Of a stretch of DNA of 64,000 nt, positions 12,758 through 41,271 are shown piece after piece. The position numbers were made by a program, and so were the translations under genes. How positions within the stretch are numbered: the stretch's first letter is position 1; each line of letters begins with the position of its first letter. Origin of the DNA: Saprospira grandis str. Lewin (GTDB taxonomy: Bacteria; Bacteroidota; Bacteroidia; Chitinophagales; Saprospiraceae); NCBI RefSeq assembly GCF_000250635.1, contig NC_016940.1, positions 1,096,995-1,160,994 on the forward strand. The letters run 5' to 3'. The notes beneath the pieces were generated by a model. That model did no database searches. It was not told where the DNA came from and worked only from the letters and a program-made list of their open reading frames with translations.

Positions 12758-12767
12758 AGCCATAAAT

Positions 12768-12986: not shown

Positions 12987-13005
12987 AGTTGCTTTTTGCC
13001 ACCAC

Positions 13006-14391
13006 TTACCAATTGCTGGCCCACTGCCAAGCTATGCGGCTCTTAATGTAGTTGTAACGCAACTTTAGGGCCTTCAATTGGGCCTCTACATATTGCTGCT
13101 GTCGAGTATTGACAATAAATATATCCGACTCGCCCAGCATAAATTTTTCTCTTTCCGCTACCACCAATCTGCGGTAATTCTCTACTAGTTCATCGGCCAA
13201 TTGGGCCTGCTCTACCGCCTGCTGTAGGGCCATAAAATAGCTTTTGAGCTTGGTCTGTAAATCTCTTTGCTTAAAGCGATATTTGAAGTCCAGCTTCTGC
13301 TGCTTCAGCCGATTGAGGGCCAAATCACCTCGGGCGCTGCGCATCAAAATAGGATGCTCGAGCTGTACGCCCAATTTATAATACTCCAAAGGACTCCCTT
13401 GGCCAAATTGCAGACTTTCTCCAGCCAAAAAGTTATACTTCAACTTAATTTTGGGCAATAATTTATTGGCCTTTAAGCGCTCTTCTAGCTCCAAGCCCTG
13501 CTGCTGAAAAGCATAGCTTTGTAGCTCGGGCTGCTGCTCCAAACGGGCCAACAAGCCCTCCAAATCACTACTATCTAAGGGGGTTAGAGGCAAGGCCAAA
13601 ATAGATTGAGCCAAACTGCCCAAGGGCAAACTCTTTTCTTCTAGCTCTTCCCCCCAAAGATGCCGCTCTACCTTTAAGGCCGCTTGCTCACTAGCCAAAC
13701 GCGCCTCCAATTGCTTGAGGCCAGCATCCTGCCACTGAATAAAGCCCTTTAAGGTGTCTATGGCCGCAATGTCTCCCTGCAAAAAACGGTCGCGCAACTG
13801 CGACAATTGTGTAGCCTGAATTTCTCGGTTTTCTTCATAAACAGCCAAACAGGCCTGCTTGTAGGACCAGCCCCAATAGTCTGCAGAAATATCATAGAGC
13901 AATTGGTTAATTTGGGCCAATTGCTCGGCCTGATTCTGCGATTGAAGCAATTTTGCCTGCCGAATTGCATTGCGGCGCTCGTTCTGTATCAATCCATTGA
14001 GAATGGGGACCTCTACACCCAAAAAAGCCTGCCCCGCCGCTGGCAACTGATCGGCCGGATTGAGGTAGTAACCCTCTGCCAAACGATAACCCGCCTGAAG
14101 GTTAATGCCCCAAATGCTAGGCAGTTGCAAGTAGCTTTCAAAAATATCATAATATTCCTTGCTCTTAAATTGCTTTTGGTCCCATTTGGCCATCAACTTA
14201 GGGTCTAGCCCTCCCCTAGCCTTACGCAACTCCGCCTCGGCCGTCTGCTCCAAAAGCTGAATTTGTCGACTCAAGGGATGGTAAAGCTTTGCATTTTCTA
14301 TAAGACTTTGGTAGCTCAGGCTGTCTTGTGCCCGAAGCGGAAAAAGCAGCAGCAAAAGGGCCGCCGCTAAAAAAAAGGATTTCAACGACAT
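13006..14391 (-). CDS. TolC-family outer membrane efflux protein
   Basis: Signal peptide MSLKSFFLAAALLLLLFPLRAQ. ~460 aa with two-repeat coiled-coil/beta architecture. Sits immediately downstream of the HlyD-family gene. Confidence 0.7.
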   Translation of the reverse strand: MSLKSFFLAAALLLLLFPLRAQDSLSYQSLIENAKLYHPLSRQIQLLEQTAEAELRKARGGLDPKLMAKWDQKQFKSKEYYDIFESYLQLPSIWGINLQAGYRLAEGYYLNPADQLPAAGQAFLGVEVPILNGLIQNERRNAIRQAKLLQSQNQAEQLAQINQLLYDISADYWGWSYKQACLAVYEENREIQATQLSQLRDRFLQGDIAAIDTLKGFIQWQDAGLKQLEARLASEQAALKVERHLWGEELEEKSLPLGSLAQSILALPLTPLDSSDLEGLLARLEQQPELQSYAFQQQGLELEERLKANKLLPKIKLKYNFLAGESLQFGQGSPLEYYKLGVQLEHPILMRSARGDLALNRLKQQKLDFKYRFKQRDLQTKLKSYFMALQQAVEQAQLADELVENYRRLVVAEREKFMLGESDIFIVNTRQQQYVEAQLKALKLRYNYIKSRIAWQWASNW

Positions 14392-14393
14392 GC

Positions 14394-15824
14394 TTATTTT
14401 TTGAGCTGATTGACAGGAGCTTTCATTTTTACTTTTTCATAGTTGATTTCGTAGTAATCTGGCGGGAAACCATTGAGCTGCCGCCAAACTTCATAGCCCA
14501 AATAAACATCTTTGAGCAAAATTCGAGCTTCTGCCGCTGCGCCCACCCGCAAGCCCTTGGGCCAATCTTTGGCCGCATAGGGATCCGGAATCACCAAGGC
14601 TCTAAACATAGAGTTATCACTTACGGCATTATCTACCGCATAGACCTTTCCTTTAAAGGTACCTACCGACTGATTGGGCCAGCCCGCAAAAACAAAGGCC
14701 GGCCAACCATCAAAGGTAAAGATGACTGTCTCCCCTTTCTGAAGTAGGGGGTAATCCATTGGCCGCACATATATTTCTACAGCAGGGGGAGGCGAAAGTG
14801 GTGCCACCGCAAGCAATTGCTCCGTTTCTTTCAAGGTCTCGCCAATTCCCTTTTTATAAATCTTAGAGACAAAGCCATCCTGAGGGGCCAAAATGTAGTA
14901 AAACTGCTGCCGATTCTGATAATTGGCCTTGGTGTTTTTCAACTTGGCCACTTTTTCTTGGCTGTCAAAACCCGCCGTCAAAGCCGAAAGACGATCCGAC
15001 TCCGCCTTGGCCAATTTATCGCCATAATCTGCCCGAATGCTATTGAGTGCAATTTTAGCATTGAGGTATTCATTTTTTGATAGCTCTAGCTTATTTTCTG
15101 CTGCATTCAGCTTGGCCTCCGTTTCTTGCATTTTATTGCGCTTGCCCTCCCATTCGGTCAATGATTTTAGGCCCTTCTGATAAAGCGTATCGGTCCGAAA
15201 AAATTGCTTTTCTGCAATGTTTTGGGCCATTTTGGCCGCCTCCAACTTTGCACTATCCGAGGCAATCTTAAATTTGGCCTGCTTGAGCTTGTTTTCCGCC
15301 TGCTCCAACTTGAGCTGCTGCGCCTCTCGCAACAAGCGAATACGCTGCGCCAAAGCCTCCGCCTTCTGCTGATAAGATACCACAGAAGAAGATTTAGCCA
15401 CCAACTGCTCATCGGTCCGCTGTACTAGCTCAGGGTCCATATAGGCGACCTTAATTTCCGATAAACGCACCAGTGTATCTCCCGCATGCACCGTATCGCC
15501 TTCCTGCACATACCATTGCTCAATCCGCCCCGGAATAATCGGGTAAACCGACTGAGGCCGATCTTCTGGCCGCAAAGAAGTCACTTTTCCCTTGGCCCGT
15601 ATGTTCTGCGTCCAAGGCAAAAAAGCCATAGAAAACAAGAGAATAAAGAGCGACAATAAGGTATAGAGCAACCAACGCCTACTCTTGGGCGTACTCACCT
15701 TCTTAAAGGCGGGATATTGCTTAATCCGCTGAATAGGCAGCGAATCGCTAGGAGAAATGTTGAGCATATAAGGGTTATTGTTTTTTGTAGATGGCAATTG
15801 TTTGCAAACTAACCATAAATACAA
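14394..15824 (-). CDS. HlyD-family membrane fusion / secretion protein
   Basis: N-terminal TM, long coiled-coil (LKQAKFKIASDSAKLEAAKMAQNIAEKQF...), C-terminal beta domain. A 3-nt gap to TolC suggests one operon. Confidence 0.7.
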   Translation of the reverse strand: MYLWLVCKQLPSTKNNNPYMLNISPSDSLPIQRIKQYPAFKKVSTPKSRRWLLYTLLSLFILLFSMAFLPWTQNIRAKGKVTSLRPEDRPQSVYPIIPGRIEQWYVQEGDTVHAGDTLVRLSEIKVAYMDPELVQRTDEQLVAKSSSVVSYQQKAEALAQRIRLLREAQQLKLEQAENKLKQAKFKIASDSAKLEAAKMAQNIAEKQFFRTDTLYQKGLKSLTEWEGKRNKMQETEAKLNAAENKLELSKNEYLNAKIALNSIRADYGDKLAKAESDRLSALTAGFDSQEKVAKLKNTKANYQNRQQFYYILAPQDGFVSKIYKKGIGETLKETEQLLAVAPLSPPPAVEIYVRPMDYPLLQKGETVIFTFDGWPAFVFAGWPNQSVGTFKGKVYAVDNAVSDNSMFRALVIPDPYAAKDWPKGLRVGAAAEARILLKDVYLGYEVWRQLNGFPPDYYEINYEKVKMKAPVNQLKK

Positions 15825-15975
15825 AATAAGGTTGAATTTCTATGGGGATATTAGTTTTTTTTAACAGCCTTTTCTCTGCCCGATGGCCTTAGGCTAAATT
15901 TGTGGCTTCCGCAAAAAGGCCCTATCTTTGGCAGCGATAATTTTGATCAAAAAATCGAGAATTGCGCATTCAGCT

Positions 15976-16605
15976 ATGAAAAAACCTTATGTTATAGGGA
16001 TTACCGGGGGAAGTGGCTCGGGCAAAACCACTTTTTTATCTGCTTTAGAACAAGAATTTGGCAAAGAGCAAATTTGTATCCTCTCGGCGGACCACTACTA
16101 CCGCCCCAGAGAAGAACAAAAAGCCGATGAACAGGGGGTCCTCAATTTTGACCTCCCCTCTTCCATCAATGCCGAAGAACTAGAGCGAGATGTCCGCCAG
16201 CTGATTGCAGGCCAAGATATAGAACGAAAGGAATATACCTTCAATAATCCTTTGGTCCAACCCAAAATGCTTAAATTTAAGGCGGCGCCCATCCTTATTT
16301 TAGAGGGTATTTTTGTCTTTCACTATCCTCAAGTCGCCGACCTGATCGACCTCAAGGTCTTTCTCTACACTAGCGAGTCTACGGCCCTTTCTCGCCGGAT
16401 CAAGCGGGACCGCATTGAGCGCAATTATCCCCTAGAAGATGTGCTTTACCGCTATGAGCATCATGTGATGCCCACCTACCGACAGTATATTGCGCCCATT
16501 AAGGAGCAGGCCGATTTGCTCATCAATAATAACCATAAGTTTGATGCTGGCCTTCAGGTCTTTAAGGGCTTTATCAATAATTATCTGCAAGAAGTAGAGG
16601 ATTAA
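15976..16605 (+). CDS. udk: Uridine kinase
   Basis: MKKPYVIGITGGSGSGKTTF P-loop start and ~209 aa. Start moved to the ATG at 15976. Confidence 0.8.
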   Translation: MKKPYVIGITGGSGSGKTTFLSALEQEFGKEQICILSADHYYRPREEQKADEQGVLNFDLPSSINAEELERDVRQLIAGQDIERKEYTFNNPLVQPKMLKFKAAPILILEGIFVFHYPQVADLIDLKVFLYTSESTALSRRIKRDRIERNYPLEDVLYRYEHHVMPTYRQYIAPIKEQADLLINNNHKFDAGLQVFKGFINNYLQEVED

Positions 16606-16608
16606 GTT

Positions 16609-16771
16609 TTTTTGGGGCCTGCGGGCCCCTTTTGCCTTGCTGCGCTGCGGCAAGGGCCCGCCGGGCTGTTGCGGGGCTCGCCGGGCTGTTGCGGGGCTCG
16701 CAGCGCTGCTCGGCCCTTCAGCGCTGCGCGCTTCGGTCTGGCCTGCGGCCACCCCTACACATCCCTAGGCC
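16609..16771 (+). repeat. GC-rich modular intergenic repeat, copy 6 (forward, with an internal 20-bp tandem duplication gccgggctgttgcggggctc x2)
   Basis: tttttggggcctgcgggcccc...gccgggctgttgcggggctcgccgggctgttgcggggctcgcagcgctgctcggcccttcagcgctgcgcgcttcggtctggcctgcggccacccctacacatccctaggcc. Confidence 0.85.
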
Positions 16772-16817
16772 GGGGCCATTTTTTTCAGGCTGCTCTTTAC
16801 TCCCCAACCCTTTGCCC

Positions 16818-18032
16818 ATGTTTTCACGCCTTTTTTCTGCTCCGCCCTCGGCCTTTTCGGCTGTTAGTACCTTGATTGTCAAAGTGACTTATCGCTGCAA
16901 TTTAGATTGTTTGTATTGCTATGAGAAAGTAAGCAAAACGGGCCAAGATATGTCTATTGAGCAGTTTAAAGAGCTGGTAGATTTGAGTTTGGGCCAAACT
17001 TCTTCTCCTCAACTCACTTTTCTTTTTCATGGGGGCGAGCCTACCCTCTTGCCCATTCCTTGGTATGAGGAGGGCCTAGATTATGCCTTGAGCCAGGCCA
17101 AAAAATGGGGAAAAACGGTTCATTTTGCCATGCAAAGCAATTTGGTCCGTCTAAAAGAGGAGTATATTCAGTTATTTCAGCGCTATAAGATAGCCTTGGG
17201 GGTGAGTTTGGACCAGCCCGTTTTCCTGCTAGACGACAGCCAGCGAGGAGGCGAGACCAAGGTCTTCAAGAACTTTAAACGCCTACAGGCCGCCAAGGTC
17301 AAAGCGGGGGTTTTGGCCACCATCAACAGCAGCAACTACCCCAACTTTTATACCCTTTGCGAATGGCTGTGGAGCGAGGCCAAGCAGCGCTCTTTTAAGG
17401 CCAATGTGGTCACGCCAGTGGGGGCTGCCCATGGGCAGCCCCCACTGCAGGCCGAGCAAATTTTTATGGCCCAAAAAGCCATTATTGATTATATGATAGC
17501 GACCCAAGGACAGGCACTCATAGAGAGTAATATTGCCTTAGAGTTGGGCCGTTATTTTGAGCCAGAGCAAGCGCAAAGCACCCTTTGCCATGAAAAAACC
17601 TGTGGGGCGGGCCGTTCGGCTTTGGGGATTACGCCAGAGGGGCATTTGTTGCCTTGTGGGCGCTTTGCTTGGAACGAGCCGGCTTACTATTTGGGCCATC
17701 TTTCTGAGCAGCGACAAGCCAGCCGAAAAGAAAAAAAGCAATTGGCCCAGAAAATTGCCGACTTTCATGCGCAAAAGCCAGAAAACTGGTACGATTGCGA
17801 AAGTTGTCCCGCCCAAAAAGTCTGCGGTTATGGCTGTCAGGCCTTCATTCTCCGCTCCGAGGAGCAAGCCAATTTGGACTGCCTGCCGACCAAAATGCGC
17901 TTTGCCTATTATCAGGAAAAAGAAGTGGCTTTAAAGGCTGTTTTTGACAACATCCAAAAGCGGCAGGCGGGTCCCAGTCGCCAATTTCGGATTAAGGACC
18001 AAAACGGGCAATGGAAAAGCTACAAACTTTAG
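16818..18032 (+). CDS. Radical SAM enzyme with a C-terminal SPASM domain (AnSME / peptide-maturase-like)
   Basis: CNLDCLYC (CX3CX2C) near the N-terminus and the SPASM motif CESCPAQKVCGYGC near the C-terminus. The ORF-track start at 16632 lies in repeat copy 6, so the start is moved to the ATG at 16818 (MFSRLF...). Confidence 0.7.
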   Translation: MFSRLFSAPPSAFSAVSTLIVKVTYRCNLDCLYCYEKVSKTGQDMSIEQFKELVDLSLGQTSSPQLTFLFHGGEPTLLPIPWYEEGLDYALSQAKKWGKTVHFAMQSNLVRLKEEYIQLFQRYKIALGVSLDQPVFLLDDSQRGGETKVFKNFKRLQAAKVKAGVLATINSSNYPNFYTLCEWLWSEAKQRSFKANVVTPVGAAHGQPPLQAEQIFMAQKAIIDYMIATQGQALIESNIALELGRYFEPEQAQSTLCHEKTCGAGRSALGITPEGHLLPCGRFAWNEPAYYLGHLSEQRQASRKEKKQLAQKIADFHAQKPENWYDCESCPAQKVCGYGCQAFILRSEEQANLDCLPTKMRFAYYQEKEVALKAVFDNIQKRQAGPSRQFRIKDQNGQWKSYKL

Positions 18033-18069
18033 GCGGGCCGAAGAACAGCCTTTAGCCTGAAAAAGGGAG

Positions 18070-18200
18070 ATGAGCGGCCCAGCGCTGCGCAGCGGTGGCC
18101 GCAGGCCAGACCCAGCGGGCGAAGCCCGCGCAGGGCCGAGCAGACCTGCGAGCCGCGGAGCATAGCGGCGGCCAGCGAAGCTGGCCGCGGGCCCCAAAAC
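18070..18200 (-). repeat. GC-rich modular intergenic repeat, copy 7 (reverse)
   Basis: cggcccagcgctgcgcagcggtggccgcaggccagaccc...gggccgagcagacctgcgagccgcggagcatagcggcggccagcgaagctggccgcgggccccaaaa. Confidence 0.85.
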
Positions 18201-18218
18201 CCAGTAATTATAAACAAA

Positions 18219-20328: not shown

Positions 20329-20730
20329 GCCTATAATAGCGCAGATGAGGAAATTATTCTGCTGGATAAGGTAGCCAAGCAAAAACTATTAACGGATGAG
20401 GAAATTAAATCCTTAAAAGCCAAGAAACTAATCGAGGGAAGAAAGCCCAACTTTCATATTTCCTCAGAAGTAGCTAAAGCATCGGGAGATAAAGCAAGGT
20501 ATATAAAGCAAAGAGGGATTGACGATAAGTTTTATGAACAGTTAATTATTCAATATTTGAATAAATTTCAAGTAGCTAGTAGCGCTGACCTTAAAAAACT
20601 ACTACTCGATAAATTACCTGAAATTTTAGCTCCCAAACAGAAAGAAAATAAAATCAGAAATATGTTGCAAAAGATGAAGCGCAACTCACTAATTAAGCTA
20701 AATGAAAACCGAGAATGGCAACTCGTTTAA
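20329..20730 (+). pseudogene. Remnant (C-terminal ~130 codons) of a RecG-like 'ATP-binding protein / putative transcriptional regulator' gene, with the N-terminal part deleted
   Basis: The frame is open from the stop at 20326 but has no start codon. The translation ...LIEGRKPNFHISSEVAKASGDKARYIKQRGIDDKFYEQLIIQYLNKFQVASSADLKKLLLDKLPEILAPKQKENKIRNMLQKMKRNSLIKLNENREWQLV* matches the conserved C-terminal HTH tail of that family as recalled. Confidence 0.55.
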
Positions 20731-20817
20731 TTTAAACGGGATTTAAACGGGATTTAAACGGGATTTAAACGGGATTTAAACGGGATTTAAACGGGATTTA
20801 AACGGGATTTAAACGGG
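20731..20817. repeat. Tandem repeat, 11-bp unit (atttaaacggg) x ~8
   Basis: tttaaacggg followed by (atttaaacggg)x7, directly visible. It begins at the stop codon of the truncated gene. Confidence 0.9.
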
Positions 20818-20934
20818 AAATTAATGCAAAGTACTGGAAATCAAAAACATAAGTCTCGTTTAATTTGGTTTAAAAAAATTTAATTTAATCGAATTAGCTA
20901 TTTTTAAATGATAGAAATTTAAGCCTCAGGAATC

Positions 20935-23868: not shown

Positions 23869-25002
23869 CTACTCTAGCTTTTCTAAGCCCCCAAATTCTG
23901 CCTGCCCCTGGGCCAACATGGCTTTGCGAGCCGATAATTCTACTTTCTCCGATTTTTGCAAACAAGAGAAGTCCGCCGCCAAAATGGCTTGGAGCTCCGC
24001 CAAAACTTCTTCCCGACTCAACCAGTAGTGCTCCGTCAAAAAGATGTCGTCTAATAGCTTTTGCTTAAAGGGATCTAAGGCTTGATCTAAGTTTAAATCG
24101 CTCTGATAAAGCGCATCCAGCCGCTCAAAAAGGGCCAAATGCTGCCCCCGACCCAATAGGCTGTATTCCCGATTTTCTTCCAACAAAGCTATGCTCCAAC
24201 TCCCCAGAGAATAACCCAAACTGTCTAAAGGATAGGCCGCATAAAAAAGCTCCACCAATTGGTCATCTAAGCTGTCTGCCGTCTGCTCGGCCAACTTCCC
24301 CCAAAATCTGTAATCCCGATACAGCTGATATTCGGTTTTGGGGGCTGGCAAATAGACCAAATAACCCGGCAGTACATGCTGCAACCAAAAGAAATTGGCC
24401 AAACTATCTGCCGAACTTAAGGCCAAGGCCTCATTCACCCGCTCCTCCAAGGCCAATTCTAGGTTTTCGCCCTTTTTATACAACATCCGAAAAGCAGGCA
24501 AACTCTGAATCTCTGCTGCTTCTCGCTGATATTGCTTGACCTCCGCAGCCAACTCGTCGCCAAAAAAGAAGTATAAACGCCGATCTAACCAAAGCCGCTG
24601 CAAATCCTCCGAGGGCAGGCTGTCAAAGCTCAAACTCCCCCCAAATAACCAGCCCTTATAGCCATCTGCCGCCTCTACTTCTAGCCAGGGCTCCCTATGG
24701 TCCACCCCCTCCAAACGGATCAAACTTTCGGCCTTGCTCATCCGCCCCAAATACCGAAAACTACTGCCTTTGTGGTAGCTCCGCAAACTTTTTGCCCCCC
24801 AATCTGGCGCCGCTTTCAACTCCCCTTCTCGACTGCTCAGGCTCAGGCTGGCTCCTTGCCCATCTGTCGATATGTATAGGCTGCTGTCTGCGGTTTTGGG
24901 CGCTTTTTCTGGCCCTTCTAGCAGCGGTTCCTGGCCTTGCTCTTCGGTACAAGAAAACAATAACAAACAGACAATCAAGGATATAGCGGAATATATTTTC
25001 AT
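23869..25002 (-). CDS. Hypothetical lipoprotein
   Basis: MKIYSAISLIVCLLLFSCTEEQ lipobox-like signal. Otherwise no recognised family. Confidence 0.5.
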   Translation of the reverse strand: MKIYSAISLIVCLLLFSCTEEQGQEPLLEGPEKAPKTADSSLYISTDGQGASLSLSSREGELKAAPDWGAKSLRSYHKGSSFRYLGRMSKAESLIRLEGVDHREPWLEVEAADGYKGWLFGGSLSFDSLPSEDLQRLWLDRRLYFFFGDELAAEVKQYQREAAEIQSLPAFRMLYKKGENLELALEERVNEALALSSADSLANFFWLQHVLPGYLVYLPAPKTEYQLYRDYRFWGKLAEQTADSLDDQLVELFYAAYPLDSLGYSLGSWSIALLEENREYSLLGRGQHLALFERLDALYQSDLNLDQALDPFKQKLLDDIFLTEHYWLSREEVLAELQAILAADFSCLQKSEKVELSARKAMLAQGQAEFGGLEKLE

Positions 25003-25012
25003 CTTTTTTTTT

Positions 25013-25172
25013 ATTTTGGGGCTGCCCCGCCCTGCGGGCGGGTCGGGCTGTGTCAGGGCTCGCAGGTCTGCTCGGCCCTTCGCAAAAAAGCTGCGCTTTT
25101 TTGCTCGGTCTGGCCCTGCGGGCCACCCTTATCCATCCCTCAGCCGAGGGCCAGCCGCCAAGCGCTTTAGCC
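25013..25172 (+). repeat. GC-rich modular intergenic repeat, copy 8 (forward, head variant B)
   Basis: ttttggggctgccccgccctgcgggcgggtcgggctgtgtcagggctcgcaggtctgctcggcccttcgcaaaaaagctgcgcttttttgctcggtctggccctgcgggccacccttatccatccctcagcc... Confidence 0.85.
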
Positions 25173-25234
25173 TAAAATTTTTATCAAAGAAGGGCCAAAC
25201 AATTAATTAGATCATTGCGAAGCAATACCATTTT

Positions 25235-25359
25235 GGCCTAGCGATGTGCAGCAGTGGCCGTCAGGCCAGACCGAGCCGCTGAAAGCGGCGAAGGGCCGAG
25301 CGAACAGCGAGCTGCGAAACGTAGCGCCGCAAGGCGAAGCCGCAGCGGAGGCCCCAAAA
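25235..25359 (-). repeat. GC-rich modular intergenic repeat, copy 9 (reverse); forms an inverted pair with copy 8
   Basis: ggcctagcgatgtgcagcagtggccgtcaggccagaccgagccgctgaaagcggcgaagggccgagcgaacagcgagctgcgaaacgtagcgccgcaaggcgaagccgcagcggaggccccaaaa. Confidence 0.85.
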
Positions 25360-25363
25360 CATC

Positions 25364-28072
25364 CTAATCCTCCTGAGAAGAAGACAACAAACTGTTTTGC
25401 GCTTGTCGCTCTTGGCCAAAAGTCAGAATCTGCCGAATAAAATCGAAGGGCTGATAACCATTGATGGCCGTTTGGTGGAAGATGCAGGTGGCGGGCGTCA
25501 TGCCGGGCAAAGAATTGACCTCAATGACCAGGGTTTCGGCTCGGCCATCGGCATAAATGCGGACAAAAGCATCGATTCGGGCATAGCCCGTAACCCCCAA
25601 AATGCGGGCCGCCTGCTCTAAATCGGCCTTAATTTGGGCCGCCAAGGGCGCATATTCAAGTTCGCCAACAGCCAAGCGAGCAGGGGTAATATTTTGTCCC
25701 TCTCCCGCCAAAAACTTCTCTTCCAACGATAAAATCTCGCCAGAAGCCAAGGTTTCAGAAGGCTCAAAAACCTCATAGCGGATGCTTCCATCGGCCTCAT
25801 GATGACAAAGTAGGCCCACGGTCACCTCCAGAAAATGCAGGGCATCTTTTTGCTCCACCAACTGCTCTAAAAGGGCATATTGCTTTTGGGGAAACTCCTC
25901 TTTGGGCAAAATGGCTAGGCGCTCTTGGGCAATTTTTGGCAAAATATCCTCTTCACGGAAAAGGGCCGCCAAAAAGGCCTCCAATTCCGCCTCATTTTTG
26001 ATCTTTTTCACGGCAGAGCTACAGCCATCATCTACTGGCTTGGCAATCAGGGGCCAGCCTAGTTTTTCGCCTGCTTGCTGCAGACTTTGTTCAGGCTGGG
26101 CCAAATAATCGCTTTTGCTCAAAAGGATTTGCTCGGTCACGGGCAGGCCAGCGGCTTTCAGCTTTTGGAGACTTTGGTACTTATCAATCGTCAAGGCAGC
26201 AGAATCGGCCTCCGAACCATTAAAAGCGATGCCTCTTTTGGCCAACTCTCTTTGGAGCGCGCCATCCTCGCCGGGGCGGCCATGCAAAGCGATAAAGGCC
26301 AGACGGGTCTCCTCGCTTAATTCATCAAAAGAGAGCGAGCGGGGATCTAGGCGGCTACTTCGGCCAGAAAACTGATTAGCAATATGAGCCGTTTCTTGGC
26401 GAATCTTTTGGATAATGGGATGTACCTTATAATTTAATAATTTATCGCGAATATCGTCGGCATTATCCTTTAGCAAAAGGTTGATTGGTAATTCGTAGAG
26501 CTGTTGGTCCTCCGCCTTGCCCGTCAGGAAAACGGGAAAAGGCAGATAATCTGCAGAGCTGGCCAACTTCTCATAAATATTGCGGCCACTTTCTACCGAA
26601 ATATGGCGTTCGGAAGAATAACCGCCTAGAATAACCGCCACCTTTTGGAGTTCGGCAACCTCTCCTTCTAGGCGTTGCATCTCGCTTTCCAATCGGGCCA
26701 ATAATTGGCCATAATTATTGGGGCGCAGGCATTTTCGGCTGCGGGCCAAAAGCGAGCGATGAATAATAAAACTGAGAAAATGCGAGGGATTGAGGCCAAT
26801 TTCGGCCGCTTGATGGAAAAAGAAAGAAGAAGGCAGCATGCCCGAAGTCGTATTCGGATCATTGAGAATAATGCGGCCATCGGCTTGAATAAAACCATCG
26901 ATTCGGGCATAAACATCAAACTCCAAAAAGCGGAACAGCCGTTCGCACTCTTGGCGGATCGCTTGGATTTGGGCCTCGGGCAAATCAATAGGGGTTAACT
27001 TACGCGAGAGTCCAGCCAAATACTTAGAGCGATAATCAAAAAGCTCTTTGCCCTTGATAATTTCGGTGGGGGGCAAAGCAATGGCTTGGCCATCCTCATC
27101 TTGAATCACGACACAGGAAAACTCTCGGCCCTCAATAAAGCCCTCTAATAAAACGCTTTCCTCTCGGTATTGGCTTTGGAGTCGGAGCTTGGGGCTATGT
27201 CCCTGCCCCAATTCCTTATCGAGTAGGGCCAATAATTGCTCGGGATGATAGAGCAACTGTTTATCTTTTTTTGGGCCTTCCACCTCTAGCGGGAAGCCGA
27301 GGCCAGAGCGAATATCGAGCAATTTCCGCATCCATTGGATCTGCTCCTCTCGGCTCATTTGCTGCCAGTCTTCGGCGCTAATTTCGAGGCCAAAAAAGGC
27401 ATTTTCTAGGGCATCGAGAAGGTCTTCAGCCTGCTCGACAATACGCACACCGATAGAAGAACCTTGATTGGAAGGGCGGACCACCAAGGGGAAACCCATC
27501 TCTTTTTTGAGCTGCTCCAGATTGGGCAATTCGCCGCTCCAGTCTTTGGCCCAAATTTGTTGGATGGGAGGACTTTCAAAGCCGCCTGCCTGCATCATTT
27601 TCTTCTGGAAACTTTTGTCCATGCCCAGGCTACTCGCTCGGATGCCAGAGCCACTATAGGGAATCCCCAAAGCTTCTAACATCCCTTGAAGTTGACCATC
27701 TTCGCCCCATTCGCCATGCAGACTCAGAAAAGCAAAATCGATCAATTCGGGCAATTCGCTAAAGCTAATTGGGCGGCCAATTTGGGCCAGCAACTCCTTA
27801 GAGGCCTGCTTAGAAAGGCCTAGGCTTTCCACATAAATCTGAAAATGGTGTGGGCTAGGCGGCAGTGCCTCTACTGGGGGATAAAAATCTCGGATACTGC
27901 CCTTATAGAGATACTCCCAATCGAGTAGGCAGAGTTGGCCAAAACTATCCACAAAAATAGGGATGGGCCGAAAAAGTTGTTTATTTAAATTATCGTAGAC
28001 GGTCCGGCCACCTGCAAAGGCGATTTCGCGTTCTCGAGAGGGGCCAGCCAGAAATATTCCAATGTTCAACAT
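25364..28072 (-). CDS. Tandem double D-alanine--D-alanine ligase-like (ATP-grasp) protein, 902 aa
   Basis: Two complete Ddl-like modules. Module 1: MLNIGIFLAGPSREREIAFAGGRTVYDNL..., FLSLHGEWGEDGQLQGMLEALGIPYSGSG, FPLVVRPSNQGSSIGV, EFSCVVIQDEDGQAIALPPTEI, DYRSKYL. Module 2: VAVILGGYSSERHISVESGRNIYEKL, IALHGRPGEDGALQRELAKRGIAFNGSEADSAALTIDKYQ, WPLIAKPVDDGCSSAV, EVNSLPGMTPATCIFHQ. Confidence 0.7.
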   Translation of the reverse strand: MLNIGIFLAGPSREREIAFAGGRTVYDNLNKQLFRPIPIFVDSFGQLCLLDWEYLYKGSIRDFYPPVEALPPSPHHFQIYVESLGLSKQASKELLAQIGRPISFSELPELIDFAFLSLHGEWGEDGQLQGMLEALGIPYSGSGIRASSLGMDKSFQKKMMQAGGFESPPIQQIWAKDWSGELPNLEQLKKEMGFPLVVRPSNQGSSIGVRIVEQAEDLLDALENAFFGLEISAEDWQQMSREEQIQWMRKLLDIRSGLGFPLEVEGPKKDKQLLYHPEQLLALLDKELGQGHSPKLRLQSQYREESVLLEGFIEGREFSCVVIQDEDGQAIALPPTEIIKGKELFDYRSKYLAGLSRKLTPIDLPEAQIQAIRQECERLFRFLEFDVYARIDGFIQADGRIILNDPNTTSGMLPSSFFFHQAAEIGLNPSHFLSFIIHRSLLARSRKCLRPNNYGQLLARLESEMQRLEGEVAELQKVAVILGGYSSERHISVESGRNIYEKLASSADYLPFPVFLTGKAEDQQLYELPINLLLKDNADDIRDKLLNYKVHPIIQKIRQETAHIANQFSGRSSRLDPRSLSFDELSEETRLAFIALHGRPGEDGALQRELAKRGIAFNGSEADSAALTIDKYQSLQKLKAAGLPVTEQILLSKSDYLAQPEQSLQQAGEKLGWPLIAKPVDDGCSSAVKKIKNEAELEAFLAALFREEDILPKIAQERLAILPKEEFPQKQYALLEQLVEQKDALHFLEVTVGLLCHHEADGSIRYEVFEPSETLASGEILSLEEKFLAGEGQNITPARLAVGELEYAPLAAQIKADLEQAARILGVTGYARIDAFVRIYADGRAETLVIEVNSLPGMTPATCIFHQTAINGYQPFDFIRQILTFGQERQAQNSLLSSSQED

Positions 28073-28171
28073 AGGTGCAAGGCAGATTTATAATGATGGG
28101 CGCAAAGGTAGCAGATTTTTTAGAGAGTTGAGTTTTTAGCGAATAGAGAGTAAGCACAGGGGAGTATTTCG

Positions 28172-28208
28172 CCCTAAAATAAAAGGCCCCGACAAAATTG
28201 TCGGGGCC
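28172..28208 (-). terminator. Rho-independent terminator after the Big_2 lipoprotein gene
   Basis: Minus strand: ggccccgaca-aaat-tgtcggggcc 10-bp stem followed by ttttatttt. Confidence 0.7.
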
Positions 28209-28235
28209 TAGAACAAGCAGTTAGTTAGCTTAATA

Positions 28236-29723
28236 TTATTGTACCGTTACCGTAATAGTTTGGCTAAAGTTGCCATGGCAAACGGTAATATTTGCGGTTC
28301 CGCCGCTGAAAGAAGTGGCAGAAATTTCTCCGTTGAAATCAACATCTGCTACTTGGATATTATCTGAGCAGTAAACGATTGGCGCACCAACAATAGCGGT
28401 AGCGCCAGCATCTACTACCTCCGCAGAAATCTGAGCCGTTTGGCCAAAGCTAAGCGTCACATTAGAAGAACTATTGAGATTGAGGCCTGCCGCATTGGGG
28501 TCGGCTGTACCACAATTACAAGAAGAACCTACAGCCACAGAGAGAATACTTACGCCAGGAAATACCTCAGGATCATTAGCATCAGCAGCAATCACAAAAG
28601 TAGACATACCTGGGTTGGCTGAAGATTTTACGGTAGCCAAACCATTGTTGTCAATAGTAGCTACATCAAAAATGGGAAAGCCAAAAGTAGGAATTTGCCA
28701 GCTGACATTAGAGGTTGCTTGGGGGTTGTTAAGCACCAACTCGCCATTGCTACGCACTACATCATATTTGGTAGCGCTATATTGCTGTGTATTGCCAGCA
28801 GCTACAGAAGCATTTAGCGGATCAAGCGTAATTACTTTATTGGGGCTAACTTCTAGTTGAGCTTCGCCAACTACACCTTGGGCCATAGCATAGACCTTAG
28901 TACTTCCGATAGTTTGGGGGCTGATATTTCCATTAGCATCAATTGTTGCAATAGAAGGATCAGCTACCGTCCAGTCAAAAGTGACTGTTTTTTCATTGCC
29001 ATCCATATCATAAGCCTTGGCGGTATACTGAGCAGTTTCTGTTTTGAGGATGACTTGGCTAGCGGGACTAACCACCACACGCTGCACAGGCAACTCAATC
29101 ACAGGAGGAGCCAAGACAGTAACGGGCACCTCTACAACAGGGTTACCGTCAATGCCCGAAGCCGTAACTGTAATGATACAGTTTCCAGCCCCAATAAAAC
29201 TCAACTCTCCAGAAGCATTTACCGTAGCTACGGTATTATCGCTAGACTGATAGCTATAAGTGGGTGAAGAGGTCCCTAGATAAACGGCCTCCATCTGAAT
29301 ATTCGGGAAATCACTATCGACTAAAACAGCTGCAGGAGCCACGGCAAAAAGTGCGGGAGTCTGTATAGCCAAAGGCGCAGAACTAGTCAAGGTCGTTCCA
29401 CCAACCGTTACCGAAGCCTGAATAGTGGTTGTTCCAGCTGCAACCACTGTAACCGCCCCATTGCTAGCAATAGTGGCTACATCAGTATTTGCACTCGACC
29501 AGCTGACATTGCTAGCTGCCGTGCGATTGCCCTCAGTATCTAGCAAAACAGCCGTATAAGTTAGGCTGCCATCCATAAGCATGGTCTGAGCACCATTTTC
29601 AATTACAAGCATTTGATTGCTAGCATCCTGATTGTCTCCATTATTATCTTCATCTTTTTTACAGGAGGTCAAGGCTAAAAAAAGTAGACTAAAAAGTCCT
29701 AAATAATTTAAAATTTTCATCTT
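28236..29723 (-). CDS. Surface lipoprotein with repeated bacterial Ig-like (Big_2-type) domains
   Basis: Signal/lipobox MKILNYLGLFSLLFLALTSC. Thr/Val/Ala-rich beta repeats (AVTVVAAGTTTIQASV; SFIGAGNCIITVTASG; TIGSTKVYAMAQG). Start set to the MKILNY ATG rather than the ORF-track 29768. Confidence 0.6.
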   Translation of the reverse strand, partial: KMKILNYLGLFSLLFLALTSCKKDEDNNGDNQDASNQMLVIENGAQTMLMDGSLTYTAVLLDTEGNRTAASNVSWSSANTDVATIASNGAVTVVAAGTTTIQASVTVGGTTLTSSAPLAIQTPALFAVAPAAVLVDSDFPNIQMEAVYLGTSSPTYSYQSSDNTVATVNASGELSFIGAGNCIITVTASGIDGNPVVEVPVTVLAPPVIELPVQRVVVSPASQVILKTETAQYTAKAYDMDGNEKTVTFDWTVADPSIATIDANGNISPQTIGSTKVYAMAQGVVGEAQLEVSPNKVITLDPLNASVAAGNTQQYSATKYDVVRSNGELVLNNPQATSNVSWQIPTFGFPIFDVATIDNNGLATVKSSANPGMSTFVIAADANDPEVFPGVSILSVAVGSSCNCGTADPNAAGLNLNSSSNVTLSFGQTAQISAEVVDAGATAIVGAPIVYCSDNIQVADVDFNGEISATSFSGGTANITVCHGNFSQTITVTVQ

Positions 29724-29914
29724 AAAATGTTGAATGTTAATTAAGTGGCTTGTTCCAGCCGCCGCCAAGGTCTAAAAACATGCCAAGACAGCATTAAGCA
29801 AGCATTCAAACAACAAACCAACAATTGCAAAAATTTGAAAATCAATTATATATAAAACATGAAAATTAGTTCCTTTTTCAGGAAGATTTCTTTCCTTCTT
29901 CTAAGGGTCTATTT

Positions 29915-32374: not shown

Positions 32375-32439
32375 AAACTCCTTTTGTTTTAAATTAAACG
32401 TACTGAAGTAATAAATAGAAGTCTGCCTAGGATGTTGAT

Positions 32440-32595
32440 TTTTTGGGGCTGCCCCTGCGGCCTACGGCCTTGGGTCGGGCTGTTTCGCAGCTCGCTGATC
32501 GCTCGGCCCTGCGCTTTTTCACTACGTTCAAAAGCTGGGTCTGGCCTTCGGCCACTGCTGTCCATCCCTCAGCCTGCGGCGGCTTTGCCGCCTGC
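32440..32595 (+). repeat. GC-rich modular intergenic repeat, copy 10 (forward, variant B-like)
   Basis: ttttggggctgcccctgcggcctacggccttgggtcgggctgtttcgcagctcgctgatcgctcggccctgcgctttttcactacgttcaaaagctgggtctggccttcggccactgctgtccatccctcagcctgcggcggctttgccgcctgc. Confidence 0.85.
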
Positions 32596-32700
32596 TAACG
32601 GTGGCTGCAACATAAACCCTACAGCAAAAATGGTCCTGCGCTGCAAGGCGGTATAAATTGAGGGCCGAAGAAAATGGCCAAAAGAGAAAAAGACCGTTGA

Positions 32701-32827
32701 GCGGCTTAGCGCTGCGGAGCGGGTGGCCGCAGGCCAGACCAAGGCGGCTTGCCGCCGCAGGGCCGAGCAGACTTGCGAGCCCCGCAGCATAGCGCCCCGC
32801 CGCCTGCGGCGGCGGGGAAGCCCCAAA
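32701..32827 (-). repeat. GC-rich modular intergenic repeat, copy 11 (reverse); forms an inverted pair with copy 10
   Basis: gcggcttagcgctgcggagcgggtggccgcaggccagaccaaggcggcttgccgccgcagggccgagcagacttgcgagccccgcagcatagcgccccgccgcctgcggcggcggggaagccccaaa. Confidence 0.85.
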
Positions 32828-34192
32828 TTAGTCCCTATGAAAAGGAAGCAACCAACTGGGACTACTAAAAAGCGCTGCTTTTTCTTGGGCCAAATTGACC
32901 TGAGGATCTACCAAGCGCTGGCTAGGGCGGCCATTGAGGCTGACCTGAGCGTCTAGATAAACCTCTGGGTTTTGATAGCCTTCTTCTGTTTGGTAATAAT
33001 TGGCCAAATAATGGGCAAACTGCAAAAGCATATCAGGTTGATAGGCCATCATCAGCTCCTGTTTTTCATTGAGATGGTCCAGATTATTGACCCAGCTCAT
33101 TTTGCCCGTTTGGCCATCGACTACCTTAAACTGAGCATAGCCCCTTTTCTCGACCAGCATGACCATCCAAGAAAAGCGGAAGCCCTGTTCCTGCCAAAGG
33201 ACATTGCCCGCATAGAGATGATGTCGCAGCGGAAAAAGCGCCTGAAAAAGCAGAAAAGACAGCAAAAAATAGCGTTGAAAAGGGGGAAGAACGAGCTCTA
33301 GTTTTAATTTAGACAAAGTCAAATTAAAAATTTGAGCAAAGGTAGCAATTATTTTTTCATGAAAATGGCTAGAGAAAAAAATTGTGGTGCAGGCCATCAT
33401 CAGGTAGGGAAAAATGCCGATATAGAAGAGGGCGGCGGTGGCTAGGTGGAAGCAAATGACAAAAAAGTAGGCATATTTTCGGCTTTTGGACCAAAGGAGA
33501 AAAAAGCCAATACTGAGATCGAAGGCGGCGCCAAAACAGGCAAAAATGGGGGGCAGCCAGCTCTTGCAGAGGAGAGGGCCAAAGATTGGAAAATCGGATA
33601 GTTGGCCCAGCCAGATGCGCAGAGGTTGGGCTAAAACGAGCCAATCGCTTTGCAACTTGGCCAAGCCGGCAAAAAAATAGACCAGCACAAAAAGCAGTCG
33701 GGGCGTCCATATATATAGAGCGGGAACCTTGACCAAAGTCACCGAGATCGGATAATCTAGGGAAAAAGCGCGATGAGCGGGCAGGATCCAAAGCAGCAGG
33801 GCTAGCAAAGCGACCAGGTAGTAATGATTGAGATAATGCGTCAGGTCCAAAAGCTCTACATAAGTAAAGCAAGCAAAAAAAATCCCGGCAGAAAATTTAT
33901 ATTTATAGCCTAGGGCGATACCGAGGCCAGCGGCAGCCATCAAAAAAAAGCAGGCATAAAGGGCTGTTGCGGGCAATTCGGGCAGCCAATGCGTACCCCA
34001 AAGGCGGAAGGCAAACTGGGGTTGGATATAGAACTTATCGACCCAGCCGAGCAGCAGCATTCGCAGAGAGAGCCAGCAAGCGATCAGGCCAAAAATGATT
34101 CTGAGGCTAATGAGGGGGGCGATACTTTTGGGTTGGTCTAAAGCGAGCATAAGGATGAATTTTATGGGCGCAAAGGTAGACAATAGGCGCAA
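32828..34192 (-). CDS. Polytopic membrane protein, HTTM-domain-like (vitamin-K-dependent gamma-carboxylase-related)
   Basis: Multiple predicted TM helices over ~280 aa (…YIWTPRLLFVLVYFFAGLAKLQSDW…) followed by a soluble C-terminal domain. The assignment is from recalled family features only. Confidence 0.45.
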   Translation of the reverse strand: MRLLSTFAPIKFILMLALDQPKSIAPLISLRIIFGLIACWLSLRMLLLGWVDKFYIQPQFAFRLWGTHWLPELPATALYACFFLMAAAGLGIALGYKYKFSAGIFFACFTYVELLDLTHYLNHYYLVALLALLLWILPAHRAFSLDYPISVTLVKVPALYIWTPRLLFVLVYFFAGLAKLQSDWLVLAQPLRIWLGQLSDFPIFGPLLCKSWLPPIFACFGAAFDLSIGFFLLWSKSRKYAYFFVICFHLATAALFYIGIFPYLMMACTTIFFSSHFHEKIIATFAQIFNLTLSKLKLELVLPPFQRYFLLSFLLFQALFPLRHHLYAGNVLWQEQGFRFSWMVMLVEKRGYAQFKVVDGQTGKMSWVNNLDHLNEKQELMMAYQPDMLLQFAHYLANYYQTEEGYQNPEVYLDAQVSLNGRPSQRLVDPQVNLAQEKAALFSSPSWLLPFHRD

Positions 34193-35430: not shown

Positions 35431-35617
35431 ACTAAAGCCAGCGATGAATTGAAATAGAAAAGCTGAGTAGGTGAAAGCCTGCTCGGCTTTTTTTGTGGGG
35501 GTGTATATGTTATTTTTAACGCTTTTTGTTGTATATCTCTAGATATAGTTGTACTTTAGTTAAAATTCTACTTTTCCCAAAAGCTAAAAAACTCAAGCTA
35601 ACTGCTTATCGTTTAAA

Positions 35618-36139
35618 GTGCATAATCAAGCAGCAAAAACTTTATATGCTATGGATTTATCAATTCAATATGGAAGGTCTAAAAGTATATTAGATTCGCT
35701 TTCTGATGAGGCATCTACAGCATCTAGTATAAGTTGGATAGAGCGCCTGCTTTTAATTTTCATTATCAACAGAGTGAATAAAAAGCTCTCTAAATTAAGT
35801 GCTGGCATTGAGGCTAAAATTAGCTCAGAAAAACAAGCTAAAGAATACCACAAACTCTATTTGGTAGCCCAAAAGCTCTCTAAAGAAGACATTCAACTCC
35901 AAGCCTCTACTTCTTATCATTTTTTGGAGGGTCGAGTAATCAAAAAAGCCCTACAAACACAAAAGCTACTCCTTGAAATCAAGGAAAAATTAGCTGTAGT
36001 TTTATTTCCTACTCCCGAAAAGGTAGATCGAGCAACATTTTTCAAAGAGTCGAAACGCATTAAGGATTTTTTTGATGATTTAGATGATGAGGACACGGAC
36101 CAAGCCTACTTAAGTTATCATCCAGATTTACCTCAATAA
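35618..36139 (+). CDS. Hypothetical protein of 173 aa; candidate partner (antitoxin?) of the downstream MazF-like gene
   Basis: Lies in an AT-rich islet and its stop is 4 nt from the next start. Lys/Glu-rich helical sequence with no recognisable family. Confidence 0.45.
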   Translation: MHNQAAKTLYAMDLSIQYGRSKSILDSLSDEASTASSISWIERLLLIFIINRVNKKLSKLSAGIEAKISSEKQAKEYHKLYLVAQKLSKEDIQLQASTSYHFLEGRVIKKALQTQKLLLEIKEKLAVVLFPTPEKVDRATFFKESKRIKDFFDDLDDEDTDQAYLSYHPDLPQ

Positions 36140-36142
36140 TAT

Positions 36143-36493: not shown

Positions 36494-36523
36494 TATTTTT
36501 CAGTGATAAAAAACAACACCTAT

Positions 36524-36556
36524 AAAAAAAAGCGGCCTTCGGGCCGCTTTTTTTCA
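36524..36556. terminator. Rho-independent terminator after the MazF-like gene
   Basis: A8-gcggcc-ttcg-ggccgc-T7 (UUCG tetraloop). Confidence 0.75.
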
Positions 36557-36776: not shown

Positions 36777-36855
36777 CTATGGAACCAACTGCAGCGCAAA
36801 TATGGCAACTTTTAATCAATTGGCCAAATATTTTACCTACTTTTTTGAGCAAAGC

Positions 36856-37011: not shown

Positions 37012-37014
37012 TAA

Positions 37015-41267: not shown

Positions 41268-41271
41268 GATC

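Follow-up and report, generated by a model that had tools for sequence, protein, structure and literature searches.

Facing repeat copies between co-directional genes of Saprospira grandis as probable independent members of an abundant structured repeat family

The intergenic region 25003–25363 in a 64,000-nt stretch of Saprospira grandis str. Lewin (the window; coordinates are window positions unless an L-label is given) holds two oppositely oriented copies of one repeat element, and is bounded by the stop codon of a gene encoding a tandem D-Ala-D-Ala ligase (Ddl) and the start codon of a 377-aa open reading frame (ORF). The locus raises the question of whether such a pair is a functional unit. 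An earlier note on this DNA had read it in this way: transcribed together, the copies would form one long RNA hairpin acting as a terminator or insulator, or as an RNase III substrate. Its description of the locus is accurate. Copy 8 (25008–25149, plus strand; subtype A) and copy 9 (25231–25365, minus strand; subtype B) face each other, their 3' ends joined by an A+T-rich spacer (25150–25230) that measures 81–88 bp, according to end placement, and contains an ATTGC-GAA-GCAAT hairpin. The complementary cores quoted from the two copies are exact inverted repeats of 14 nt (GCTCGGCCCTTCGC/GCGAAGGGCCGAGC) and 13 nt (GCTCGGTCTGGCC/GGCCAGACCGAGC). The arrangement also recurs, as claimed, at a second locus (32435–32578, plus; 32699–32834, minus), and at both loci the flanking genes are co-directional, lying on the minus strand.

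The feature flagged at this locus is an ordinary instance of an extraordinary family. With moderate confidence, we interpret the pair as independent A and B members of an abundant structured repeat of Saprospira and related Saprospiraceae that is similar to repetitive extragenic palindromes and the bacterial interspersed mosaic elements built from them (REP/BIME) or to miniature inverted-repeat transposable elements (MITEs), is non-autonomous, inserts at T-tracts and is homogenized by exchange. Iterated nhmmer searches and a covariance model place 21 family copies in the window, all of them intergenic, and the covariance model has 193 matches in 602 kb of Saprospira DNA. The repeat unit spans 130–160 nt (about 135), occurs about once per 3 kb and makes up ~4% of the window; its core 10-mer GCTCGGCCCT occurs 20 times there, against 0.15 expected. 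Copy 8 begins with TTTTGGGGCTGCCCC and ends with CCCTCAGCC (118.7 bits with the full covariance model; nhmmer E = 4e-27), and copy 9 runs from TTTTGGGGCCTCC, with GCGCTACG further in, to GCTAGGCC at its 3' end (128 bits).

Alignment of the window copies reveals a fixed order of parts. A T-run and GGGGC are followed by a variable hairpin, H1, and a connector (TCGGGCTGT in subtype A, GCGCTACGTTTC in subtype B); then come the core GCTCGC(A)GGTCTGCTCGGCCCTKC, a second variable hairpin, H2, the motif TYGGTCTG, a hairpin H3 and the sequence CAC..CACATCGCTAGGCC or variants of it, usually with one more hairpin. Invariant cores (GCTCGC..GCTCGGCCCT, GGTCTG and CA.C.CT..GCC) are in this way set between helices that vary freely while remaining strictly Watson–Crick. 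For H2, 169 distinct sequences were found among 234 parsed copies; it folds at −5 kcal/mol or below in 80% of copies versus 10% of shuffles, and its loops mostly have three bases (C-TTT-G, C-TGC-G or C-TTC-G). In copy 8, the alignment and the projected consensus place H2 at 25082–25104 (plus strand) with the sequence GCAAAAAAGC-TGC-GCTTTTTTGC.

RNAalifold, applied to a MAFFT alignment of 65 copies, yielded 26 base pairs; compensatory changes occur in 16, and one-sided changes are almost absent. The consensus fold comprises eight helices. Its closing stem, P1, has 5 bp and joins the ends of the copy (5' GGC-N-N with 3' N'-N'-GCC); projected onto copy 8, it pairs GGCTG at 25020–25024 (plus strand) with CAGCC at 25141–25145. 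Inside P1 lie two long-range helices, the second of which pairs the four bases before the GCTCGC core with the four bases after H3 and exists in at least six perfect versions (GCAG/CTGC, AGGG/CCCT, GGGG/CCCC, GCGG/CCGC, GCCG/CGGC and GTGG/CCAC), and H2 is enclosed by an invariant GGCC/GGTC helix. A larger alignment of 150 copies, fitted to the covariance model, contains 99.2% standard pairs in 3,898 cells, compared with 77% when shuffled and 31–62% when the partner is slid by 1–3 columns; 803 cells changed on both sides and three on one side, and an independent MAFFT alignment yielded the same pairs. The variable positions of P1 are likewise matched (CT/AG 97, TG/CA 63, CC/GG 35 and TT/AA 7, with 11 exceptions among 213). 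Because the nested helices covary and the P1 combinations are complementary, we regard each copy as an autonomous folding unit. The minimum-energy fold of a single sequence differs from the covariation-supported fold by 7–15 kcal/mol, and in view of this disagreement covariation was given priority. Pairing within each copy is kept, by selection or homogenization; pairing between copies is not the thing maintained.

The joint folds of the two pairs are nonetheless very favorable. As RNA, 25003–25363 (minus strand) reaches −179.5 kcal/mol against −141.9 ± 5.7 kcal/mol for dinucleotide shuffles (z −6.6; 0 of 100 shuffles equal), the second intergenic region reaches −216.6 kcal/mol (z −6.3), and the first pair as single-stranded DNA has a z-score of −6.05; at both loci the fold that the earlier note had asked to be checked is more stable than shuffled sequence. 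Joint folding gains 35–51 kcal/mol over the parts folded apart; single copies alone show a modest gain over shuffles (z −0.5 to −2.6). In the minimum-energy folds, inter-copy base pairs number 60 for the first pair and 54 for the second. The pairing over more than 60 nt that had been predicted is matched in the first pair in number of pairs but not in continuity, as side hairpins and branch points interrupt the duplex and the longest unbroken inter-copy helix has 12 bp. RNase III substrates usually comprise about two helical turns, and against a yardstick of ~20 bp of near-continuous double-stranded RNA the structure formed by these 54–60 pairs is branched, with a longest run of those 12 bp. 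Cruciform extrusion from duplex DNA across a non-palindromic center of 81–128 bp is kinetically very unfavorable.

These folds speak for the earlier model, in which a co-transcribed pair forms one long RNA hairpin that terminates or insulates transcription or is cleaved by RNase III so as to separate the two messages. So do the retention of the pairing capacity by both pairs in three genomes, an outermost helix formed by UUUUGGGGC and GCCCCAAAA, which would juxtapose the upstream stop codon and the downstream start codon, and the position of copy 9, which lies in sense orientation with its T-run beginning 4 nt past the TAG stop of the tandem-Ddl gene and no separate terminator between them. 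However, covariation supports pairing within rather than between copies; the retained pairing capacity follows from the invariance of the cores; there is no hairpin with a U-tract in the transcribed orientation; and a copy folding during transcription would presumably close its own stem before its partner exists. Together with the short continuous helices and with the composition of pairs across the family, described next, this makes the model very unlikely in our assessment. Terminator, insulator or RNase III roles may exist for co-transcribed pairs but have little support, and the native terminators lying upstream of some copies (see below) also speak against them.

Statistics on neighboring copies come from 896 kb of S. 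grandis DNA, made up of the window and 104 segments of strain DSM 2844, each of 8 kb. Neighbors less than 150 bp apart are convergent in 17 of 17 cases (p = 6e-11 versus 25%), and among the 29 less than 300 bp apart, 26 are convergent, one is divergent and two are tandem, and the check for over-represented inverted pairs that the earlier note had asked for is thereby positive. About 80% of copies, however, are singletons, without a partner for a long hairpin. Identity within pairs is 67%, slightly below the 71% of random copies (p = 0.025), and neighbors separated by a gene are no more similar than random copies. Pairs join an A and a B copy in 18 of 26 typed cases, compared with 45% expected (p = 0.01), a bias that entails less, not more, complementarity between copies. 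Gaps range from 49 to 391 bp, and the spacers of different pairs are mostly unrelated, with short hairpins alone in common. We therefore rejected a REPIN-like doublet replicating as a unit, its arms being no more alike than random copies and its spacers unrelated, and likewise a composite transposon or gene cassette between inverted copies, given that the enclosed genes are aroA, recO, cobW, ferredoxin, a radical-SAM enzyme and the like. The reading of the pair as a functional structure is thus supported in part, pairing being possible on paper and the arrangement recurrent and over-represented; it is not supported by covariation, which lies within copies, by the mixed subtypes, by the many single copies or by helices that stop at 12 bp. 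It does not look like a unit; the long inter-copy hairpin looks like a by-product of common cores and element placement.

In that placement, the TTTGGGGC end of each copy abuts a T-rich tract, which lies on its 5' side at the border of a transcription unit. Three T directly before GGGGC are 96–100% conserved, and the upstream flank is T-rich for ~25 nt, while the boundary on the 3' side is not sharp and has no matching T-run. The TTTGGGGC end points toward a stop codon in 112 copies and toward a start codon in 110, all copies pooled, which leaves the family as a whole without a sense or antisense preference. With gene calls from an in-house heuristic, the median distance from the 5' end of the element is 32 nt to stops and 66 nt to starts, and from its 3' end 105 nt to stops and 181 nt to starts; a quarter of the stop-facing copies start within 7 nt of the stop codon. 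A canonical hairpin and T-tract terminator runs into GGGGC in 19 of 103 stop-facing copies versus none of 104 start-facing ones (p = 7e-7), as at 44409 (GGACTACGGTCC-TCTTTTTTTTGCTTT-GGGGC), from which we conclude that the element lies 3' of T-tracts owned by the neighboring gene. The elements themselves are not canonical terminators, since in them the T-run comes before, not after, the G+C hairpins. Consensus scans of both pairs for a terminator or sigma-70 promoter found none inside any of the four copies, terminator counts over the two 1-kb regions holding the pairs are at or below shuffle expectation, and a Bacteroidetes-type TAnnTTTG box formed by the terminal TTTG was discarded because the required A is present in 5% only.

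T-tracts also account for convergence: the left edge of an intergenic region has its tract on the top strand and the right edge has it on the bottom strand, so two occupants always face each other. Both flagged pairs illustrate this. Copy 8 is antisense relative to both flanking genes, and its T-run (25004–25017) stops 1 nt short of the ATG (25002–25000) that opens the downstream ORF; on the gene strand, the copy reads ...GGGGCAGCCCCAAAATAAAAAAAAAG-ATG. In the second pair, the subtype A copy 10 (32435–32578, plus strand; 111.1 bits), kept in all three genomes, is antisense with its T-run end toward the start of a TonB-dependent receptor gene (ATG at 32374), and the subtype B-like copy 11 (32699–32834, minus strand; 95.4 bits; GGGGCTTCC...GCTAAGCC) is sense, with TTTGGGGC immediately after the TAA stop of an HTTM-like gene.

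A one-ended T-run of variable length, sometimes interrupted, together with a ragged opposite end and discrete subfamilies that share one fold, would also suit a SINE-like spread by target-primed reverse transcription, in which an RNA of the strand ...GCCCC-AAAA is primed through its A-tail on nicked T-tracts. We consider this extremely improbable: no reverse transcriptase was seen, although no search was aimed at one, nor were any target-site duplications; a lack of wobble pairs is uncommon in a fold selected as RNA; and no such retroposon is known from bacteria.

Whether the constraint acts on DNA or RNA is addressed by the rare irregular pairs. Outside an invariant G.T, the non-Watson–Crick cells among 3,748 comprise G.T 6, A.C 12, C.T 13 and others 5, with no enrichment of wobble pairs on either strand, and GC-to-CG flips dominate the variation. 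The lack of a wobble excess and of a pooled orientation bias favors constraint or homogenization on DNA, whether on one folded strand or on both. The loops pull against a DNA reading in their strand asymmetry, TTT, TGC and TTC being far commoner than AAA, GCA and GAA. Read on the reverse strand, these are GAA and GCA loops closed by C-G, a very stable DNA mini-hairpin motif.

Orientation by subtype, which also pulls against a DNA reading, brings in a second alternative. In co-directional spacers, subtype A is antisense in 33 copies and sense in 11, whereas 42 of 71 subtype B copies are sense (Fisher p = 5e-4). Each copy might then be a cis-acting RNA element, with subtype B in sense orientation protecting or ending the upstream message as a 3'-UTR structure and the reverse complement of subtype A serving as a structured leader before an A-rich start region, a pair being one of each. 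Both flagged pairs fit this scheme, with B after a stop and A, its T-run by the start codon as in 33 of 44 co-directional cases, before a start; the quarter of stop-facing copies beginning within 7 nt of the stop, the conservation of the elements above near-neutral sites (see below) and the ability of fully Watson–Crick helices to fold on either strand are in keeping with it. Against it stand the unbiased pooled orientation, the 41% of B copies that are antisense, the missing G.U signature on both strands, and the at least 18% of stop-facing copies that lie behind a canonical terminator and should be poorly transcribed. Nor does Rfam offer a match to 24990–25380, where even at E ≤ 10 the best scores are 7–14 bits versus gathering scores of 40–70. 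On this balance, we judge a cis-acting RNA role unlikely. A known RNA family was rejected for the whole window, in which Rfam gives only a tRNA and ARAGORN only tRNA-Arg; this sole match, tRNA-Arg(TCT) at 36712–36786, lies 85 nt from the 3' end of the copy at 36871–37017.

Orthologous loci were compared in Saprospira sp. CCB-QB6 (L122, ~85% nucleotide identity) and S. grandis DSM 2844 (L124, 94–95%). All 14 covered copies (eight in CCB-QB6 and six in DSM 2844), both pairs included, occupy the orthologous site, so that presence/absence sites could not be used to define insertion ends; the polymorphisms seen are only those of a smaller hairpin element described below. Between Lewin and CCB-QB6, identity is 86% in the elements, 79% in the remaining intergenic DNA and 69% at third codon positions. 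Lewin and DSM 2844 do not differ in copy 8 (100% identity). Copy 9 is present at its orthologous site in DSM 2844 and CCB-QB6 with H1, H2 and H3 exchanged for other perfect hairpins and its cores identical, the new H2 and H3 matching the window copies at 4098 and 58778. Lewin carries a replaced H2 and H3 in copy 11 when compared with DSM 2844 and CCB-QB6, and copy 10 shows an A-T to G-C double change among the compared genomes. Judging by these sequences, hairpin cassettes look to be exchanged between copies, possibly with the invariant cores as anchors.

Beyond the first pair, gene order differs in each of the three genomes. In DSM 2844, the homologous stretch breaks off at 24996, close outside the T-run of copy 8, and an aminotransferase/carotenoid block takes its place; in CCB-QB6, it breaks off at 25234, where copy 9 has its inner end, and the block 9960–18199 comes next, inverted, itself ending at the T-run end of copy 7 (18199). 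These three breakpoints at element ends, few as they are, suggest possible rearrangement sites. Two indels, 28141–29913 and 35494–36548, are bounded by repeats in neither case.

Several further observations concern the same region. The gene upstream of the first pair (25364–28072, minus strand) encodes a 902-aa protein with two complete D-Ala-D-Ala ligase units by Pfam, identical to S. grandis Lewin AFC23834.1, and this double-Ddl architecture is common in Saprospiraceae and relatives (more than 100 homologues of ~900 aa). The downstream 377-aa ORF (23869–25002, minus strand) is absent at this position in DSM 2844 and CCB-QB6. A Big_2-domain gene (28236–29768) is lacking in DSM 2844, and a 1-kb segment with two small ORFs (35494–36548) is lacking in CCB-QB6. 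In the latter genome, the spacer downstream of Ddl (L122:13200–13640) extends to ~900 bp and includes a tandem array of a ~47-nt unit (GGGGAATTTCCCCACGCTAATCGGAAAAATCCAAACGCCAT...), from which it follows that the distance between facing copies varies greatly among strains.

The order of copies along the chromosome extends beyond close pairs. Successive copies alternate in orientation in 163 of 188 cases (p = 5e-26), singletons several kb apart included, and among 71 transcription units with a copy on both sides, 63 have inverted copies. Intervals of 0.5–2 kb are faced by 3' ends in 53 cases versus six of the opposite kind; the 3'-faced intervals are short and hold housekeeping genes, and those between T-run ends are mostly long operons. 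Candidate causes are the loss of direct repeats by deletion, an attraction of copies to units with strong T-tracts at both ends, and a pairwise function across a unit.

The last of these belongs to a third alternative, in which a host protein, such as a nucleoid protein, gyrase or a recombinase, would bind the copies as DNA sites marking the borders of transcription units, and the inverted orientation of copies around a unit would reflect pairwise interaction or topological insulation. E. coli BIMEs, for comparison, bind gyrase and IHF. Cores that are invariant across genera while helices vary, the strand-symmetric signature, the inversion around units and the alternation of neighbors, the conservation of copy positions between species and the synteny breaks at element termini are all consistent with such sites. 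Yet a duplex-DNA binding site needs no compensated helices, the alternation could arise passively by deletion of direct repeats flanking dispensable genes, and no binding protein is known, none having been sought. This alternative, too, seems to us improbable.

The preferred explanation, independent copies that are or once were mobile, may be set out as follows. Each copy would adopt a self-contained fold with a 5-bp closing stem around H1, two long-range helices, H2 and H3. The element would act, or once have spread, as folded single-stranded DNA that inserts 3' of T-tracts, the tract being either the terminator tract after a stop codon or the complement of an A-rich leader before a start codon. 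Where both edges of an intergenic region became occupied, the copies would face each other with their 3' ends, as at 25008–25365 and 32435–32834. The genome was probably colonized before the Saprospira species split, and the family may now be kept uniform via exchange between copies. On this account, the main importance of the elements would lie in the structured DNA or RNA that they place at gene borders, and possibly in rearrangement at these sites.

Six observations weigh against this explanation. The elements are conserved above near-neutral sites, which points to constraint and possibly to a host function. The large element shows no presence/absence polymorphism (0 of 14 sites), so its mobility is inferred only. 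No mobilizing enzyme was found in the ~1.1 Mb examined, about a fifth of one genome. The alternation over several kb (163/188, and 63/71 units) is not explained by T-tract targeting. The bias of subtype A (33 antisense versus 11 sense) is not what a purely selfish DNA element would predict. Finally, helix P4 holds an invariant G.T that, read from the opposite strand, would be mismatched.

As to the enzyme, a HUH/Y motif scan of ~1 Mb gave no Y1 transposase and a tblastn search of 1.12 Mb with an IS608 TnpA sequence gave nothing significant, both being weak negatives. No autonomous insertion-sequence partner was found among the multi-copy sequences of at least 900 nt in a sample of ~20% of a genome, which are IS3-like or IS5-like, with unrelated ends, or belong to a paralogous gene family. 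Phage origin was discarded as well, 2.9 million viral contigs containing one weak, divergent copy only. A bolder proposal, which we find doubtful, is that the family represents, rather than a selfish element in decay, a new class of structured module with dedicated machinery: a ~135-nt branched fold, read as single-stranded DNA or RNA and set in inverted orientation at the two ends of transcription units, whose cores would be recognized by a putative recombinase, transposase or nucleoid protein, with swappable helix cassettes, punctuating the chromosome and driving rearrangements at its TTTGGGGC termini.

If the preferred interpretation is right, ~4% of the Saprospira genome would consist of one undescribed structured repeat, and extrapolating from the window gives roughly a thousand copies. 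The searchable literature, which included the strain WHT genome note and the RepRanger survey and did not extend to the Lewin genome paper, gave no account of the family. The repeat breaks short-read assemblies, yields spurious ORFs and perhaps marks points of gene-order change between strains. A Logan contig, SRR29904084_170538 (L001/L123), starts and ends ~26–28 nt inside copies 10 and 9, indicating that the repeats do fragment short-read assemblies of this organism. The family also offers a natural data set on helix maintenance, with 99% Watson–Crick pairs, almost no wobble and hairpins swapped between orthologous copies, for which selection, gene conversion and hairpin-templated repair are possible answers; why orientation alternates so strictly around transcription units is not readily explained. 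More generally, a very favorable folding energy between neighboring repeats does not make the pair the functional unit.

The remaining copies in the window, all placed by the covariance model, lie on the plus strand at 706–840 (85.8 bits, with an alternative 5' module), 8703–8836, 12794–12925, 16604–16775, 39205–39336, 42679–42817, 48666–48809, 57064–57196 and 63935–64000 (truncated by the window end), and on the minus strand at 4098–4229, 9690–9823, 18072–18205 (copy 7, where CCB-QB6 synteny stops at the T-run end, 18199), 36871–37017, 41136–41270, 44256–44409, 49779–49907 and 58778–58903. Those at 4098–4229 and 12794–12925 have a terminator-like hairpin directly before the T-run, and that at 44256–44409 lies right after a canonical terminator (GGACTACGGTCC and T8). 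An alternative or extra module (GTTACTCC..GTCGTCGAACTG-hairpin-TTGTTGTCGCAGCTCGC) occurs on the 5' side of some copies (623–682, 704–782, 9831–9910 and 56932–57083) and sometimes carries its own TTTGGGGC start; the family is mosaic, with partial copies in tandem with full ones. At 48666–48998, the repeat is contained in a ~320-nt unit found at 88% identity in four DSM 2844 segments (L058, L065, L087 and L074), apparently a composite subfamily extended by 190 nt on its 3' side. Other repetitive DNA includes a tandem array of about 10 copies of an 11-nt unit (ATTTAAACGGG) in the intergenic region at 20708–20839 and, in DSM 2844, an array of a ~21-nt unit (GAAAAAGCTAGCCCGAGCAAG) at L045:2300–2500.

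A second, smaller repeat family consists of the hairpins GTAGGTTnnAACCTAC/GAGGGTTnnAACCCTC plus ATCGCAAAGCGAT. It has 18 perfect hairpins in the 896 kb, 78% of them within 150 nt of the large element, and is polymorphic among close strains: a 75-nt insertion occupies the H1 loop of copy 41136–41270 in a closely related strain, the core of copy 44256–44409 is replaced in a close strain, and a 25-nt GTAGG hairpin in the DSM 2844 spacer of the first pair is missing in Lewin. The sites are L128:4286–4364 and L128:7368–7468 (compared with window 41245–41248 and 44252–44363), L124:12838–12862 and L122:12870–13100. Its GTAG tag makes this smaller family the better candidate for a true REP.

With respect to distribution, a scan with a 22-base core pattern in one genome per species found the pattern massively repeated in S. 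grandis DSM 2844 (among the matches listed), true copies, built alike, in several genomes of uncultured Saprospiraceae, and weaker copies in two genomes of Lewinellaceae; none of the core-pattern matches in other phyla fits the family profile.

Turning to known systems, REPs are mostly inverted dimers with spacers of 20–100 bp, tandem head-to-tail dimers being rare, and heterodimers are common and can fold separately or as one large stem-loop (PMC3733652). The Saprospira repeats share with the GTAG/CGTC-tagged REP/BIME sequences of Enterobacteriaceae and pseudomonads a high copy number, an extragenic location, G+C-rich hairpins at gene borders, a mosaic character and a predominance of inverted over tandem neighbors (26 convergent, one divergent and two tandem at less than 300 bp), and with E. 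coli BIMEs (Y and Z types) pairs of mixed subtypes. They differ in that a REP is a single palindrome of 20–40 nt, whereas the Saprospira unit has 130–160 nt, eight helices including long-range ones, and non-palindromic cores; in termini (TTTGGGGC and ..GCC) without a GTAG/CGTC tag, GTAG/ATAG being confined to the interior of subtype B, where it reads on the reverse strand (GCGCTACG); in being anchored to a T-tract; and in that no RAYT gene was found by motif scan and tblastn in ~1.1 Mb, part of the genome. Over-represented inverted doublets capable of a long hairpin recall the REPINs of Pseudomonas fluorescens, but REPINs have near-identical arms, replicate as a unit and keep a characteristic spacing, whereas the Saprospira arms (0.67 versus 0.71 for random copies) and variable gaps do not follow this pattern.

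In length (100–160 bp), hundreds of copies, intergenic position, frequent co-transcription and modularity (BOX A/B/C), the repeats are also similar to the Correia/NEMIS elements of Neisseria, ERIC/IRU of enterobacteria and RUP/BOX of pneumococcus. Correia hairpins are RNase III substrates. MITEs of the Correia and ERIC type, however, are imperfect palindromes over their whole length with terminal inverted repeats of 20–30 bp, whereas the Saprospira ends share a 5-bp stem (GGCYN/N'RGCC) around a branched interior; and Correia has TA target duplications, whereas none were detected here, the 3' boundary being blurred. Integron attC sites, 60–140 nt long, resemble the repeat as folded-strand sites with short conserved end boxes and a variable helical interior at gene borders, but form a single hairpin, stand in same-orientation arrays next to an integrase gene (intI) and delimit promoterless cassettes, unlike the branched fold, the alternating orientation and the enclosed housekeeping genes of Saprospira, where no integron integrase context was seen.

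With the IS200/IS605 family and its gene-less derivatives (PATEs), the repeat shares hairpins near its ends, the lack of terminal inverted repeats and of any detected target duplication, and a fixed end directly 3' of a short target, here TTT (96–100% conserved). This family acts as folded single-stranded DNA, which would fit strand-symmetric helices of Watson–Crick pairs only. In contrast to it, the Saprospira copies alternate rather than being biased by replication direction, their 3' end is not sharp, and a Y1 transposase was not found in the ~1.1 Mb of DNA examined. In view of its unit size and missing tag, its lack of inverted termini and the matching transposase not found in the DNA examined, we file the Saprospira repeat outside REP/BIME, MITE and IS200/IS605. 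REP/BIME repeats and structured MITEs come closest to it among known systems, while its fixed end on a short target and its absence of inverted termini recall IS200/IS605.

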